Shown here: one piece after another, positions 1 through 57,556 of the stretch
How positions within the stretch are numbered: the first letter of the stretch is position 1
Layout of the letters: every line of letters starts with the position of its first letter
IMG/VR virus record: IMGVR_UViG_3300042868_002472
Span: 1 to 57,556 of that record
Direction: 5' to 3' (one strand)
DNA: 57,556 nt
Origin: a virus
Lineage: Duplodnaviria; Caudoviricetes
Translations under genes and position numbers: made by a program
Notes under the pieces: generated by a model
What the model was told of the DNA's origin: nothing
Seen by the model: only the letters and a program-made list of their open reading frames with translations
The model's database searches: none

Positions 1-514
1 TAGTTGCTGTAGCTGTTGTGTTTTGCAACATAGCAGCTGGAACGTTTAATAAAGTACCTAACGCTGTAGAGTTAGAGTCAGTTACGCGAATAAACGCAGC
101 TGTACCTGGAACAGTTACGCCAGAAGCGATGTCTGAATCAACTTGGATAGCAGCCAATGTGCCCCCTGGAGTTACGCCAGAAGCAACACCTAAAGTAGCA
201 CGCAATGCGTTAGCTGCACCAGAAATAGTACCGCCAGTGCTAACTGACATAGAGATGTGCGCACCGTTAACTGTGCCAGCTGCAGCTGCGCCTGCGCCAG
301 TTACTACAGAGAATGCACGCAATGTTTCTCCTGAACCTGTAGATGTGAATGTCAACTTGTCATAAACAAGACGAGTATCACCTGTAGTTGCAGATGTTGT
401 TGCGTAAGCTGAATTAATGTTGCCAGCAGTTGTTACCACTACTGGAGCTGAAGAAGTACCAGAGATAAAGCCGTTTAAGCTCGTCACTGGGCCTGTGAAG
501 GTGGTTGATGCCAT
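1..514 (-). CDS. virion structural protein, 3'-truncated by the window edge (not in ORF track)
   Basis: Manual translation from ATG at 514 gives MASTTFTGPVTSLNGFISGTSSAPVVVTTAGNINSAY..., open to position 1. AAGGAAA RBS upstream. T/A/G/S-rich. Lies downstream of the capsid gene. Confidence 0.75.
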   Translation of the reverse strand, partial: MASTTFTGPVTSLNGFISGTSSAPVVVTTAGNINSAYATTSATTGDTRLVYDKLTFTSTGSGETLRAFSVVTGAGAAAAGTVNGAHISMSVSTGGTISGAANALRATLGVASGVTPGGTLAAIQVDSDIASGVTVPGTAAFIRVTDSNSTALGTLLNVPAAMLQNTTATAT

Positions 515-528
515 GATAATTTTCCTTT

Positions 529-599
529 TTGCACAAGTCGCTTATTAGTCTGTGCAACGTCCGCTGGAACGGTCTAATAAGCTAAAATAGTAATTCCAG
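529..599 (-). ncRNA. candidate structured cis-regulatory RNA (double pseudoknot) in a 5' leader
   Basis: Four perfect pairings on the minus strand: CUGGAA/UUCCAG, GCUUAUUAG/CUAAUAAGC, CCG/CGG and UUGCACA/UGUGCAA. Two of them cross. The element ends just before the RBS. Confidence 0.6.
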
Positions 600-602
600 A
601 AT

Positions 603-1064
603 TTAATTAACGATAAAGTGAGTATGCTTCTTACAATTCTCAGAGCCTGCAATCACTTGCAAATTCATTGGGACGTGTAGTCCAGACACCCGTTTACCTT
701 GTAACGGTATTACATGATCAACATGCCATTCGAAATTAAAAAGTTTGCTGCGTATTTGCGCCAAATCGTACGCCTCCTCAATTAACCAAAAGTCGTCAGC
801 ATCCAACCACCCTGGTGTTCTTTGAAGTAGCGTCGCACGACGTTTTGCTTCATACGCAGCTCTCTTTTCAGGATTATTAATAGCCCACTCTCGATTGTAT
901 ACGGAGCGTTGCTCCTTATGCATATCTCGATTGAGTTTCTTTATTTCCTTACGTTTCTCTGGATTAGCTACAGCCCATGCTTTCGCACGGGTTATAGTTA
1001 GCTCGCGATTACGAAGATACCATTCTCTACGTAAGCGTTTAGCATTTTCTGCATCGCGAGCCAT
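603..1064 (-). CDS. free-standing HNH homing-endonuclease-like protein
   Basis: C-terminal WHVDHVIPLQGKRVSGLHVPMNLQVI..SEN motif. Basic N-terminal WAxxNPEKR repeats. Confidence 0.8.
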   Translation of the reverse strand: MARDAENAKRLRREWYLRNRELTITRAKAWAVANPEKRKEIKKLNRDMHKEQRSVYNREWAINNPEKRAAYEAKRRATLLQRTPGWLDADDFWLIEEAYDLAQIRSKLFNFEWHVDHVIPLQGKRVSGLHVPMNLQVIAGSENCKKHTHFIVN

Positions 1065-1070
1065 GTTTGC

Positions 1071-1985
1071 CTAGATTCCGGCGGTGCCGTAAGCGGCTCT
1101 TGGGTCAGTCCAACCTAGGCTGTAACGCTCTGTTGCTTTATAACGCATAGAGTCAGTCTCAAAGTCGCCTTCCATCGATTTTTCCAAACCACGACGCATA
1201 ACGATTTTCAAACCTTCTGGCGCGTCTGTTTTCACCCACCAAGCGGTGTTTGAAGTCAAACGAGACATGTTAGCTTGACCGCCAGATAATAGACCCATTG
1301 ATTTAATCGGGTTCAAGTCGTTGTCTGCTGTACCAGCGCGTAACACACTGTTCAACAATACTTCGCCTTGGAACACGTTAGATGGGCTTAGAACTAGTTT
1401 TTGTGGTACTAAACGGATACGTTTACCGTTGTTGTCCACAGCTTGACGGATTTGAACCAAAATTTGCTCTAATGATGTTTGAGACAAAGCGGCAGCAGTA
1501 GTTAACTGGTTGCTGAATGTACCATTCACGATTGGGTGAGCAGTGTTGATCAATGAAACACCGTCGCCACCTTGATAGGCGTTATTGAATGAGTTATTCA
1601 ATACGTTGGCCGCTAGTGTTTCTTTTGTTTCCACAAGTGATTGTGCTAAGTGTTTAGCGTACGTTTGACCGATACGGATATGATCACCATCTTCTACCAA
1701 GACTTTAGTCAAGGCAAAAGCTAGGCCATATACTTTGTACCAGTAGCGTTGTGCAAACAAGACACCACCAGATTGGTAAGTAACTGCCATACCATCAGGT
1801 AATTCTGGAGCTGCACCAAAGCCGTACAACACTGGCTCTTCATGGTAGTTACGTTTGATACCTTGAACCTCATCAAACACGCCTTTCCACTCATCAGCAC
1901 GTTGGCTATAAATACCGTCAAAACTTTCGTTAAGGATCGGCTCAACAATGGACCTAAAGTCCGTACTTCTCATTGGGGTTGCCAT
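1071..1985 (-). CDS. major capsid protein (HK97 fold, Mu gpT-like family)
   Basis: 304 aa. Motifs GGDGVSL...HP, LVLSPS and RYKATERYSLGWTDPRAAYG. Position after scaffold and decoration genes. Strong AAGGAGG RBS. Confidence 0.85.
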   Translation of the reverse strand: MATPMRSTDFRSIVEPILNESFDGIYSQRADEWKGVFDEVQGIKRNYHEEPVLYGFGAAPELPDGMAVTYQSGGVLFAQRYWYKVYGLAFALTKVLVEDGDHIRIGQTYAKHLAQSLVETKETLAANVLNNSFNNAYQGGDGVSLINTAHPIVNGTFSNQLTTAAALSQTSLEQILVQIRQAVDNNGKRIRLVPQKLVLSPSNVFQGEVLLNSVLRAGTADNDLNPIKSMGLLSGGQANMSRLTSNTAWWVKTDAPEGLKIVMRRGLEKSMEGDFETDSMRYKATERYSLGWTDPRAAYGTAGI

Positions 1986-1998
1986 TTGTCAGACCTCC

Positions 1999-2604
1999 TT
2001 AGATAGACGCTGTTGGATACTTGTAAGCGTGTTCGTTGATACGAACGTACGCAACAACATAAGCATCTGTTAGCGATTGGTTAATGTTAGTGGCAAAACC
2101 AGTGATTTGGAACTGACCAGTACCTGAGCCTTCGATAGCAGCTAATTGCGCTGTTGAAAGACCTGTACGAGTAGAGCCACCTGGAGCAGCAAAGCCAGTA
2201 AAATCACATTGTTCACCTACAGAAGTTTGAACGCTATCAGTACCAGCAGTGCCTGGATTTGTGTATTGTGCTTCAAATAATGTTTCAGGATCATCGTACA
2301 CGTAAGCAGTGATATACGTTGCTGTTGTGCCACCGATCCAGAATGGTGATATTGAAGGTTTACCTGTTGAATCTAAGTATTCAACGCCAGCTAAAGTACC
2401 AAGCAATGTTACGCCTGCGACTGTACCTGTACGTGAACCATCAGATGTACCTAATTGAATTACACCAGTGTCTACTAATTTCACGGGATCATTTGAAAAA
2501 ATGTTCGTGGCGTAGGTGCTGGCAATTGTATAAGCTTTCGGACGAATCTGACCACTGTTGTGGAAAGAAGGACGAAAGCCAAACGGTGCGCTTGTTGAAG
2601 ACAT
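1999..2604 (-). CDS. putative capsid decoration/cement protein
   Basis: APFGFRP N-terminus and VYDDP motif. Immediately upstream of the capsid gene. Confidence 0.55.
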   Translation of the reverse strand: MSSTSAPFGFRPSFHNSGQIRPKAYTIASTYATNIFSNDPVKLVDTGVIQLGTSDGSRTGTVAGVTLLGTLAGVEYLDSTGKPSISPFWIGGTTATYITAYVYDDPETLFEAQYTNPGTAGTDSVQTSVGEQCDFTGFAAPGGSTRTGLSTAQLAAIEGSGTGQFQITGFATNINQSLTDAYVVAYVRINEHAYKYPTASI

Positions 2605-2631
2605 ATTGTCTCTCCTTATTACTAATTGAGA

Positions 2632-3174
2632 TTAGGTCAAGTCAAATTGAGCTCGACCTGCATTTTTCCTCAAATCCTGCGTACCATCACCTTCAAACAC
2701 ACGACTGCCGGTACTTTCTGCTTGCTGCTTAAGGAACTCGGAAGTATCCGTTAGCTTTTCTAGCTCACGCAAAGGTGCATCGTGGTGCGCCTCTTGCATG
2801 TACTTCTCATAAAGAGAAAGTGGTAGCTTGAACGCAAGCATCTCATTAACCCCAATAAAGCCAACCCATTCACCTGTCTTAACAGATGTTGATTCCCAGC
2901 CAGGAATGTCTTCTGGCTTAATGGCTTCGTAACCCAACCTCATACGCATATTTATCGTATCTCGTGGGTTTGTAGTGGTCAACCAGCATACATGGTAACC
3001 AGGTATTTTTGGTAGATCAGGAAGTGAAGATTGGAAGAACTGTTGCCGAAATATATCTAGACGGTCGGAATCAGAGATTTCACGATTTTCTGTGACAGCA
3101 CGATTTTCCATCGTACGATCCCCACGACCATCACCTACAGTTTTCTTTAAACGTTCATCATTTGTATTTGTCAT
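2632..3174 (-). CDS. conserved head-module hypothetical protein
   Basis: ORF track gives 2632..3186. The GGAG RBS favours the ATG at 3174 (MTNTNDERL). Confidence 0.6.
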   Translation of the reverse strand: MTNTNDERLKKTVGDGRGDRTMENRAVTENREISDSDRLDIFRQQFFQSSLPDLPKIPGYHVCWLTTTNPRDTINMRMRLGYEAIKPEDIPGWESTSVKTGEWVGFIGVNEMLAFKLPLSLYEKYMQEAHHDAPLRELEKLTDTSEFLKQQAESTGSRVFEGDGTQDLRKNAGRAQFDLT

Positions 3175-4913: not shown

Positions 4914-7412
4914 TTAAGGATTAGGGTTGGGGTTAATACCGGTGCCCGTAGTCATGCCGAACTTCTCGCCACTTAGTACTTCTACTGCTGCCAGTTCTTT
5001 AGCTGTTGCATTATCAGCCTCGTTCATTTGCAACCTAGCTGCCAAGTCGGCTTGCTTGCGTGCGTCTTCACGATCTTGCACCAGCTGCTCACGTTGCAAC
5101 ACAGCCTGCTCTTTACGATCAAGCTCTTGCATACGCTGAGCCAAGTCTTGCGCCTTGAGTGCGTTCTTCTGTTGCGCGTCCTTAGCTCGCTGATCAATCG
5201 CAGCTTGCTGAGTTTGTTGTGCCAACTGAGCCACAGCCATCGTTGGATCTTGTGGGCCAGGGCCTTGCATCTCCATAACTTGTTGCTCAAGCTGCGGCAT
5301 GATTTGACTCAATGATCCTAGTTGTTGCTCAATCACAGCCAATACTTGATTAATCACTTGAACTTGCTGCTCAGAGCTCTTATCAATCATTTTCGTGTCT
5401 TGCGCTGTATTAATGGCAGAGTGCGACTCGGCCAAGTAGTACTGAACAATATGATCGCGCAAGTGCGTGATGATTAGAGGCAAATAAGTACGCGCAATCA
5501 CTGGATTTTGACCAAATAACGGGCTTTGCAGGTAAGCTAAGTGCACATGCAAGTGAGCAACGTGGTCTTGTTGCGGTAAAACCATGATTGGTCTGTTCAT
5601 TGACGCTGCTGCGTTCTCAGACGCAGGGTCCATGTCCTGTGCTTCAGGTTTTTCAACCAATAAGTCCTCAGAATTAGGAATTTTTAGCTGTTTTAGGAAT
5701 AATTCTTCAACTTTGCGGACGTCATACACCATTGGCAACATTGTCGCGCGCTGTTGTACCGCCTGAATCTGCGCAAAACGCTGTGTTTCACTGAAAACAG
5801 CTGGGTCAGAGACAGGAATGACGTCCATCGGACCGTCAAAGTCACTCGGATCGACCATTTTCTCGCCAACCTCGTCCATAACCATGTCTTCGGTGAGGTA
5901 CGCACTGTTTAGACGGTGCACAACCTTCAAGACTTGGTTCATGGAGTTGTGTAGGCGAGCGTGAATTGATGAAAATACCACCATCCCTTGCTCAATTAGC
6001 GCCAAAGTCGTGCCTACTGGTGCGTTCGGGTTCTGATCGTACAGTTTTTCAAAGGACGTTTGAACCACACCCTTACCGGCGTCAACTAAAAAGCCTAGCA
6101 ACTGCATTAAAACAGGGCTTGGTGGATTAAACGGTATCGGCATTGCAATCTTACGCACGTCATCGATGTTAATGCCACCCTCAATCTCTACCACTTCGGT
6201 CGGTTGCGGGTTAAGGTTCTGGCCGTTAGGGCCACCTTTTAGTTTTAACATCGTTGGGATGTTCTGTATGTGCGCAGAATCTAACAGCGCACGCAATGCG
6301 CCTGTCGCTGCGCCACTCAAGCCGCCAATCATTTGCGTCAAGCCGATTGGGTACGCGCCGCGCCAAGGGATGAATGGGAACTCAACCATGTTGGTAAGGT
6401 TGGCGCGCGTATCATCGTCTGGTGCCCAGTTACGGTACACGGCCAAACACTTGCCGGTCGCCTTGTCAATTGTAATCAGGTACGGATCAAACTCGTCACC
6501 CTCAATGTCTGCGTGCGTATCGATCTCAAATATAGTACGCAGGCCGTCCTCGTTGTAAGAGTTCTCCTCACGTCCCTCAATCTTGTCATTAGCCTTAGAT
6601 GCTTTAGAGTACTCAATCTCATCAGGTAGACCTAGATCAACGTCACGGTACATGCCTGTGCTTACACGCTTCTCATACTCATACTCAGTCACATACTGGA
6701 CGTGCGTCTTGCGCTCAGCCGAGTAGTAGTTAGAGGCCGCGAACGGTAGGTACACATCATCGACAGGCACGAACTCACTGGTAATGCGGTTCTTGGAGTG
6801 ATCAAAGTACAGCTTGAGGTACTGCACGCCGCCTAGTGGCAACTGAGTGAACAGCTGCTCAAGGTCAGAGCGGAACTCAGGCATCTGCTCAGTTAGCTGC
6901 CAGTTCATGTAGGTCGCCTTGCGCTCGGCCTTCTCTGACTTCTTAACGTCAGTCTTACCAATAATCTTAGTGCGTACTGGACCGTGCGGTGGGAACAGCT
7001 CCTTCATGGCCCTCGCTGAGAAGTCAACACAGGCCTCGGTCATCATCGGGTGAACGACCTTGTTAGCGCCAGTGAACTGCGCCCCACCTGGTGCATCATC
7101 GCCCAGGCCAGTGCGACGGATACCCTCCTCGTACTGCTCGTCACGCTTCTTACGTGCTTCCTTGTCACGCTCAATCTTATCTAGCAAGTCGTCAACTAAA
7201 GTTTGCAACTCTCTAGGATCAATGTCATCAACAATATTAGCGAAGTGCTCTAACTGCGTCGCGCGGTCTTGCTCGTTCTCAAGCGTAACCATCGCACCAC
7301 CATCATCGGTGTCCGTTACGCCCGTGTCTTCCTCATCGAGCTCAATGTTCTCGCCGTCTTCGGTGTTGCCTTCGTCTAATACTTCTTCGTCAATAAACTT
7401 GTCTTTAGCCAT
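4914..7412 (-). CDS. portal protein (P22-like, long Q-rich C-terminal barrel)
   Basis: 832 aa. VHPMMTEA and YMNWQLTEQMPE motifs, coiled-coil C-terminus. Lies downstream of terL. Confidence 0.85.
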   Translation of the reverse strand: MAKDKFIDEEVLDEGNTEDGENIELDEEDTGVTDTDDGGAMVTLENEQDRATQLEHFANIVDDIDPRELQTLVDDLLDKIERDKEARKKRDEQYEEGIRRTGLGDDAPGGAQFTGANKVVHPMMTEACVDFSARAMKELFPPHGPVRTKIIGKTDVKKSEKAERKATYMNWQLTEQMPEFRSDLEQLFTQLPLGGVQYLKLYFDHSKNRITSEFVPVDDVYLPFAASNYYSAERKTHVQYVTEYEYEKRVSTGMYRDVDLGLPDEIEYSKASKANDKIEGREENSYNEDGLRTIFEIDTHADIEGDEFDPYLITIDKATGKCLAVYRNWAPDDDTRANLTNMVEFPFIPWRGAYPIGLTQMIGGLSGAATGALRALLDSAHIQNIPTMLKLKGGPNGQNLNPQPTEVVEIEGGINIDDVRKIAMPIPFNPPSPVLMQLLGFLVDAGKGVVQTSFEKLYDQNPNAPVGTTLALIEQGMVVFSSIHARLHNSMNQVLKVVHRLNSAYLTEDMVMDEVGEKMVDPSDFDGPMDVIPVSDPAVFSETQRFAQIQAVQQRATMLPMVYDVRKVEELFLKQLKIPNSEDLLVEKPEAQDMDPASENAAASMNRPIMVLPQQDHVAHLHVHLAYLQSPLFGQNPVIARTYLPLIITHLRDHIVQYYLAESHSAINTAQDTKMIDKSSEQQVQVINQVLAVIEQQLGSLSQIMPQLEQQVMEMQGPGPQDPTMAVAQLAQQTQQAAIDQRAKDAQQKNALKAQDLAQRMQELDRKEQAVLQREQLVQDREDARKQADLAARLQMNEADNATAKELAAVEVLSGEKFGMTTGTGINPNPNP

Positions 7413-57466: not shown

Positions 57467-57556
57467 CTATTCTCCTAAATCAGTAGAGGGTGTTTCAAGT
57501 CGGTTGATCAACATTTGATAAGCCACGATAGTCGCTTGGGCTTGAATAACGAAAGT
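57467..57556 (-). CDS. 3' end of a small helical protein, 5'-truncated
   Basis: Open frame ...TFVIQAQATIVAYQMLINRLETPSTDLGE*, with its stop just before the next ATG. Confidence 0.5.
   Translation of the reverse strand, partial: TFVIQAQATIVAYQMLINRLETPSTDLGE

Follow-up and report, generated by a model that had tools for sequence, protein, structure and literature searches.

A conserved folded RNA with four covarying helices and two interlocked pseudoknots is made from the minus strand of this viral DNA, immediately ahead of the start codon of a small gene. The stretch of DNA analyzed (the window) is 57,556 nucleotides long and the element lies in an 88-nt spacer within it. It is an RNA motif new to Rfam 15. 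The data are fitted best by a role in cis on the downstream gene, and the element would then be a leader controlling translation and/or mRNA stability. The initial annotation had described two crossing pairings abutting a ribosome-binding site, and these proved to belong to a genuine structured RNA whose helices covary in relatives. The features of the region are as follows, with the four helices, the 3' strand of H4, the Shine-Dalgarno sequence and the start codon read directly from the sequence.

1985..1071, minus strand: major capsid gene, 304 aa, Mu-gpT-like / Phage_capsid_4 (PF25209, 3.3e-12; PF10124, 3e-06)
1064..603, minus strand: ORF for an HNH/EndoVII-like free-standing endonuclease, 153 aa (phrog_1035 endonuclease VII, 8.6e-13)
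2..514, minus strand: downstream gene, 171 aa seen, cut by the contig end, N-terminus MASTTFTGPVTSLNGF
602..515, minus strand: 88-nt spacer with the RNA element, between the HNH ORF and the downstream ORF
512..621, minus strand: whole element plus start codon as matched by covariance model R1 (cmsearch, 69.3 bits, E 2.9e-26)
599-594 with 569-564, minus strand: H1, 6 bp
582-574 with 548-540, minus strand: H2, 9 bp
572-570 with 563-561, minus strand: H3, 3 bp
557-551 with 535-529, minus strand: H4, 7 bp
594..599, minus strand: H1 5' strand CUGGAA, whose partner is the H3 hairpin loop (columns covary: CG/UA, GC/AU/UA and others)
583..593, minus strand: H1-H2 linker, variable and A/U-rich (3-22 nt in relatives, mode 5-7)
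574..582, minus strand: H2 5' strand GCUUAUUAG (8 of 9 pairs with double changes)
570..573, minus strand: invariant junction A573 and H3 5' strand CCG (GAC in 43/43 protein-retrieved rows)
564..569, minus strand: H1 3' strand UUCCAG, which is the 6-nt H3 loop (sequence and covariation)
558..563, minus strand: H3 3' strand CGG and conserved junction ACG (GAC invariant, next G at least 90% in the protein-retrieved set)
551..557, minus strand: H4 5' strand UUGCACA (all 6 pairs covary)
549..550, minus strand: conserved H4-H2 junction GA (AGAC at least 90% conserved in the protein-retrieved set)
540..548, minus strand: H2 3' strand CUAAUAAGC (sequence and covariation)
536..539, minus strand: loop L3 GACU with conserved CU at its end (CU at least 90% conserved; 2-8 nt in most copies)
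529..535, minus strand: H4 3' strand UGUGCAA, ending 2 nt ahead of AGGA
526-523, minus strand: Shine-Dalgarno sequence AGGA
514-512, minus strand: start codon ATG of the downstream gene

All four pairings proposed in the initial annotation are literally present on the minus strand. On that strand H1 crosses both H2 and H3, and H2 crosses H4. The annotation had also judged the pairings unlikely by chance. When the 88-nt RNA was shuffled with its dinucleotides preserved, one of 3000 shuffles contained perfect, mutually non-overlapping stems of 6 bp or longer that summed to at least 22 bp. The nested-only fold of the window RNA was unremarkable (MFE -16.2 kcal/mol, z = 0.06) because the program cannot model pseudoknots. 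A cmsearch of the 57.6-kb window with model R1 gave a single match, making the element single copy there.

Relatives were collected through the downstream protein, which gave 67 loci in viral contigs. The same element was found ahead of start codons in these protein-retrieved loci, with differences that visibly compensate. A 27-nt pattern of the conserved core was matched at at least 120 loci in the viral-contig scan, and the same element is present in well over 100 viral contigs. Among the 120 matches listed, 112 meet the thresholds for all four helices in ungapped register, seven further fail solely by a bulge in H2 or one weak H1, and L169 is an apparent chance match. An ORF starting M-x-x-[TS]-x-[FYL]-x-G-[PA] follows the element in 115 of the 120 listed. 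The five without this start are L077, which has a variant start, L090, L170 and L187, which are cut by contig ends, and L169. Bacterial and archaeal genomes yielded two loci in 185,579 species genomes, each on a MAG contig and each carrying the element, and this is no trustworthy clue to the host.

One copy per genome was found in four of five whole related records. The fifth (G001, the record behind L024) had two matches, slightly different copies at 2441-2544 and 59412-59524 scoring 45.1 and 47.1 bits. The two are separated by 56,971 nt, and the 68-kb contig carrying them probably represents a concatemer-like assembly of a genome of about 57 kb and not a two-copy genome. A weak 15.3-bit model match was also seen in L019 at 5170-5272 on the minus strand. 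It lies on the opposite strand and away from the matched gene, contains GACG and AGAC-like strings, and may be a remote variant or chance.

A comparative set of 143 distinct sequences was assembled from all loci. Helix tests on these copies were anchored on the core and allowed no alignment freedom. For H2, 92.9% of cells pair in the fixed register, a figure that falls to 24-40% on a shift of 1-3. In H3 the middle pair forms in all 143 copies, as AU in 79, UA in 37, CG in 26 and UG in one. A downstream 6/6 complement for H4 was present in 139 of the 143, compared to 14% with partners swapped. H1 pairs at 6/6 in 72 copies and at 5/6 in 70, the figures with swapped partners being 20% and 54%, respectively. 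It is the weakest helix, with effectively 5 bp in most copies.

A sequence-only MAFFT alignment of the 143 copies had 88.8% of cells paired, compared to 27.5-37.2% with slid partners. Shuffles of this alignment gave 69.4% paired and none of 500 reached 88.8%. The covariation score was 0.550, compared to 0.064-0.125 when slid. As these sequences had been chosen by the RNA pattern, the count was repeated on the protein-retrieved loci alone. Their 44 distinct rows were 90.6% paired compared to 29.8-37.1% when slid, in an alignment to a covariance model encoding H1 and H4, not H2 or H3, which favours H1 and H4 by construction and positions H2 and H3 by sequence anchors. Covariation in homologues had been proposed as a check on the fold, and it was strong for all four helices, with changes on both sides in 20 of 24 pairs of the MAFFT alignment and in 21 of 24 pairs of the protein-retrieved set.

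The junctions GAC, GACG and AGAC are near-invariant across relatives. Among the protein-retrieved rows, GAC before H3 and GAC after H3 are present in 43 of 43, and conservation is at least 90% for the next G, for AGAC and for the CU ahead of the H4 3' strand. Most of the 143 copies have an H2 of 9-10 bp, and L3, the loop from H2 to H4, has a mode of 4 nt. The G+C content of the copies ranges from 0.32 to 0.62. Within H2, G-U outnumbers A-C by 84 to 11, and by 52 to 8 over 86 distinct duplexes, which indicates a constraint on RNA made from this strand and not on DNA.

The element precedes a small gene with the N-terminus MxxTTFxGP and is downstream of a Mu-gpT-like capsid gene. Gene order was constant in 17 loci, comprising an ORF of about 180 aa, one of about 200 aa, one of about 300-309 aa, the element and the small ORF (74-198 aa), after which come further head-module genes. 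The element follows the ORF of about 300-309 aa, in the capsid position, in all 17 loci, although a capsid annotation is present in L024 only. The placement downstream of the capsid gene in the initial annotation therefore holds for the family, directly so in relatives without an insert, but in the window the HNH ORF intervenes. The relatives L001 and L002, 98% identical, lack this endonuclease ORF and carry a GC hairpin in its place. Related bodies with another N-terminus (MANNKPIGVAY...) occur in a separate phage lineage, where they lie behind a different capsid gene and are without the element (L012-L018, L023). Judged by capsid DNA, the nearest cultured relatives are Caulobacter phage RW and a Manatee Spring phage, and these have neither the element nor the small gene. 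The downstream ORF has no in-frame continuation at the other end of the window (1-2 compared to 57467-57556), so the record is no simple circular permutation at that point.

The gap between capsid gene and element is an insertion hot spot, taken up in several loci by one of two kinds of free-standing homing endonuclease gene. HNH/EndoVII-like genes occupy it in the window (603-1064, minus strand), L025 (2261-2911), L032 (2298-2942) and L053 (2221-2898), and GIY-YIG-like genes in L045 (2141-2893) and L047 (1954-2916). Conserved sequence in the element, or in the end of the capsid gene, may serve as the homing target. In L004 the N-terminus of the small protein is kept and the element is lost. 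A GIY-YIG-like homing endonuclease gene (2412-3001) lies inside it and the 3' half has been removed. What remains, downstream of the capsid hairpin, is the 5' half, and the small gene starts at an overlapping TAATG that keeps AAGGAG. The presence of two endonuclease kinds beside or inside the element (window, L004, L025, L032, L045, L047, L053) would suit a role at the DNA level alone, as a homing-endonuclease target or as a recombination arm for swapping the variable gene. Such a role is extremely unlikely, as neither compensatory changes in 20-21 of 24 pairs nor a bias of G-U over A-C of 84 to 11 is expected of a DNA site. The element may be both an RNA and a homing target; the RNA constraint is real.

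No relevant Rfam 15 family was found in window positions 1-2500 at E values up to 10. There was no Rfam 15 match to the element in 20 relatives at the gathering score or in 12 relatives at E values up to 5. The match to a characterized family that, according to the initial annotation, would have removed the novelty was thus not obtained in these scans. The sole Rfam match in the window was CRISPR-DR44 at 1784-1811 (E 3.8), which was judged to be chance. Matches to STnc320, L13-Bacteroidia and ctRNA_p42d in relatives were located elsewhere and below threshold. Mu-gpT-DE (RF03012) is a structured RNA found downstream of the Mu-gpT-like major head gene in uncultured phages. The genomic niche is alike, the capsid here matching PF10124 at 3e-06, but the Rfam model fails on the element. 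This 53-position model had no match in the window at E values up to 10, and in five related records it scored 8.8-12 bits at other places compared to a gathering score of 49 bits. A full-text search of the published literature found no description of the element. It may be present unnamed in the catalogue of 10,006 candidate RNAs from IMG/VR published in PMC10690425.

Small size, crossing helices and invariant unpaired bases are features that the element shares with the double-pseudoknot ribozymes (HDV-like, twister, pistol). Its helix order differs from theirs. The layout had been described as matching none of HDV, twister, pistol or hammerhead, and the Rfam 15 models agreed. Those for hammerhead, HDV, twister, twister-sister, pistol, hatchet and glmS gave no match, although permuted forms would escape them. 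A hammerhead-like CUGANGA (CUGACGA) was rejected because its U belongs to a covarying pair and varies among copies (AU 79, UA 37, CG 26).

To our knowledge there is no bacterial or phage xrRNA. Flavivirus-type xrRNA is described as a three-way junction with a double pseudoknot that holds the 5' end inside the fold (PMC12397905). The element resembles it in having a three-helix core and two pseudoknots that use the 5' and 3' tails. The arrangement is reversed, with the 5' tail pairing to the hairpin loop and the 3' tail to the junction strand, and there is no sequence or model match.

In T4 gene 32 one simple pseudoknot lies ahead of an unstructured stretch, to which the single-strand-binding protein encoded by the gene itself binds. 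This operator controls translation and, like the element, is a 5'-proximal pseudoknot in a phage gene leader. It differs in that the fold described here reaches the Shine-Dalgarno sequence and the product has no sign of nucleic-acid binding. The T4 operator is noted in PMC10690425 as having no Rfam model.

The position of the element on the message is tightly defined. In 101 of the 143 copies the Shine-Dalgarno sequence starts 0 nt after H4; an overlap of 1-3 nt with H4 is seen in 28 and a gap of 1-5 nt in 14. The distance from the end of H4 to the ATG is 9-15 nt in 141 of the 143. In the L005 type the H4 3' strand is the Shine-Dalgarno sequence itself (UGAGG), which is thus fully inside H4, and in phage HTVC027P it overlaps AGGAG; both arrangements look repressive and switch-like. 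An AUG with an immediate stop (AUGUGA or AUGUAA) was observed in the H4 3' strand of 76 of the 143 copies, e.g., L081 and L027. Its last bases belong to the Shine-Dalgarno sequence, placing a minimal start-stop directly ahead of the real ribosome-binding site. This may follow simply from the commonest H4 sequence.

The preQ1-II/III, SAM-II/V, guanidine-III and NAD+-II riboswitches also have a pseudoknot 3' strand that abuts or overlaps the Shine-Dalgarno sequence and a hairpin embedded in a pseudoknot loop. The element is unlike them in that no model matches, a second pseudoknot ties the 5' end, and it is linked to one phage structural gene while they are linked to metabolism. A factor-responsive translational switch, in which a small molecule or a phage or host protein stabilizes the double pseudoknot and alters initiation, is possible though doubtful. 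The near-invariant junction bases and invariant closing pairs resemble a binding pocket. A pseudoknot with many highly conserved bases is given as a mark of sophisticated function in a passage of Weinberg et al. 2017 (PMC5737381), and the element has both. The overlap of the Shine-Dalgarno sequence with H4 in 28 of 143 copies, and its full inclusion in the L005 type, point the same way. In 45% of copies, compared to 13% in the control, the H1 5' strand could instead pair locally in a hairpin of at least 5 bp. This hairpin was rejected as a general feature as it occurs in only 3 of 27 copies of the CCUAG class, which speaks against a switch. An alternative pairing of the 5' end with the Shine-Dalgarno sequence, suggested by the nested MFE of the window, was also rejected. 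No conserved pairing of this kind that hides the Shine-Dalgarno sequence was enriched, at least 5 bp being found in 28% compared to 33-35% in two controls. Also against a switch are the occurrence of the element once per genome, always with the one structural gene and without a metabolic regulon, the lack of a match to any known riboswitch model, and the common N-terminus of the product, which has no basic residues and makes autoregulation unlikely.

A match to TATAAT of at least 5/6 was found upstream in 55 of 147 distinct copies, a further 24 match at 4/6 and 68 have none. The -10 hexamer ends 9 nt ahead of H1 in 38 of the 55, and 34 of the 55 have an upstream TG. A GC-rich hairpin of at least 6 bp lies within 60 nt upstream in 87 of 147 copies. 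In many relatives a very stable GC hairpin without a U-run, e.g., GGGGGCUUCGGCCCCC, was observed just 3' of the capsid gene (L001 at about 2010-2030; L003, L020-L022, L026-L028 and L050 upstream of the element). Its appearance suggests a role in 3' stabilization or processing more than in intrinsic termination. Upstream of the element in the window neither a sigma-70-like promoter nor a terminator was predicted, suggesting that here the element is probably internal to a longer capsid-HNH transcript, in which case the 5' end of the element would have to be generated by processing.

This internal position would suit a self-cleaving ribozyme or an RNase processing signal, cutting the polycistronic head-gene transcript after the capsid or endonuclease gene and ahead of the accessory gene. 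The upstream GC-rich hairpin without a U-tract (at least 6 bp in 87 of 147) would suit cleavage between two stabilized RNAs, and a compact double pseudoknot with invariant unpaired bases is typical of small ribozymes. Cleavage of this kind is nevertheless improbable. No Rfam ribozyme model matched the window at E values up to 10 or 12 relatives at E values up to 5, and the hammerhead-like CUGACGA is not conserved. In copies whose -10 box is positioned 9 nt upstream (38 of the 55 good-hexamer copies out of 147), cleavage would remove few bases.

The element is also carried by cultured pelagiphages. Pelagibacter phage HTVC023P has a canonical copy ahead of gp41 (56.3 bits). The order is capsid gene, terminator with a U-run, TGTATAAT, 7 nt, H1 to H4, AGGAG and the ATG of gp41. 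This is a true terminator with a U-run, unlike the GC hairpins of many relatives. Phages of the HTVC023P type are described in PMC9599517 as widespread and among the most abundant pelagiphages. In HTVC027P the copy ahead of gp62 is divergent (13.5 bits). Table S3 of PMC12753301 classes gp62 as "Late". The last three mean values in that table, on our reading of what the columns mean, are 12786 / 22241 / 28568 for gp62, 10371 / 33390 / 74585 for gp59 (capsid), 3456 / 8343 / 11866 for gp60 and 3198 / 6216 / 9428 for gp63. These values fit, as indirect evidence, a gp62 message that is separately made or separately stable. Cells without detectable ribosomes are reported for HTVC027P infection in PMC11066056.

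Because the element directly follows a promoter-like -10 box in part of the family and heads structural genes on the same strand, an action on RNA polymerase was considered. The put RNAs of phage HK022 are nascent-RNA elements of this kind. A put-like element giving read-through of late-operon terminators is very improbable here. The tight, conserved spacing to the Shine-Dalgarno sequence and ATG would be needless for such a role, and many copies have no nearby promoter. RNA also falls about three-fold after gp62 in the HTVC027P table (PMC12753301).

The first 16-17 aa are the only part common to the small proteins. They are conserved at the protein level, with synonymous codon differences. 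Past this N-terminus the bodies are unrelated or highly variable, with lengths of 41-198 aa in the ORFs after the element (L001-L067), and (I/V)TGN repeats were seen in some. The downstream protein matched no Pfam or PHROG family and no nucleic-acid-binding family. Its predicted fold had a pLDDT of 44, too low for use. The shared N-terminus is neutral and without basic residues and, as the sole common part, it makes autoregulation by the gene's own product unlikely. From its sequence it looks like a conserved adaptor, with the body as exchangeable cargo. Leader, N-terminal adaptor of 16-17 aa and freely swapped body would form a modular cassette, which may explain the variation of the capsid-associated protein in these phages.

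A translational switch, a nuclease-blocking element, a ligand-binding RNA and a ribozyme had been suggested as functions in the initial annotation, and the data single out none of the four. A cis role on the downstream gene is favoured by the fixed Shine-Dalgarno distance, the single copy per genome and the loss of the element in L004 under translational coupling. Within such a role, we tentatively prefer a compact leader, shielding the 5' end and presenting the Shine-Dalgarno sequence, for a small, variable virion-accessory protein encoded beside the major capsid gene. Arguments for this protective leader are the promoter spacing, the lack of an alternative that hides the Shine-Dalgarno sequence and the dispensability of the element when translation is coupled. 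Its four helices are arranged as two interlocked pseudoknots about a three-helix core that is almost invariant (A / ACG / GA). This structure would span from the putative first transcribed bases to the base just ahead of the Shine-Dalgarno sequence. The result would be an "armoured" leader acting in cis on its own message, with the 5' end buried in H1. Holding the Shine-Dalgarno sequence at the end of H4 would fix the initiation rate, and the net effect would be to set the amount of accessory protein relative to capsid protein. Any effect on stability or translation is predicted from these features.

Some observations count against the protective leader. A good -10 hexamer is present in only 55 of 147 copies, 68 have none, and no promoter is predicted upstream of the element in the window. 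The repressive-looking overlap of H4 with the Shine-Dalgarno sequence in the L005 type and HTVC027P, and the divergence of the HTVC027P copy, weigh the same way. A plain stabilizer has no obvious need for about 14 near-invariant junction bases across a G+C content of 0.32-0.62. L3 is short (mode 4 nt) for an H2 of 9-10 bp, and the steric coexistence of H2 and H4 is putative.

An RNA of about 70 nt with two pseudoknots and a near-invariant core is a type of motif behind which a riboswitch, ribozyme or nuclease-resistant fold has repeatedly been found. The element is common in aquatic viral contigs, with at least 120 loci matching the strict 27-nt pattern, and is directly testable as it is carried by cultured HTVC023P-type Pelagibacter phages. 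If it is a portable leader that stabilizes the message or sets its translation, it would be a useful expression part. There is a modest chance that it represents a new phage-specific class of functional RNA, either a riboswitch or ribosome-capturing leader or the first xrRNA-like nuclease-proof cap from the bacterial world. If so, one late virion message would keep being translated while the RNA and ribosomes of the cell are consumed.
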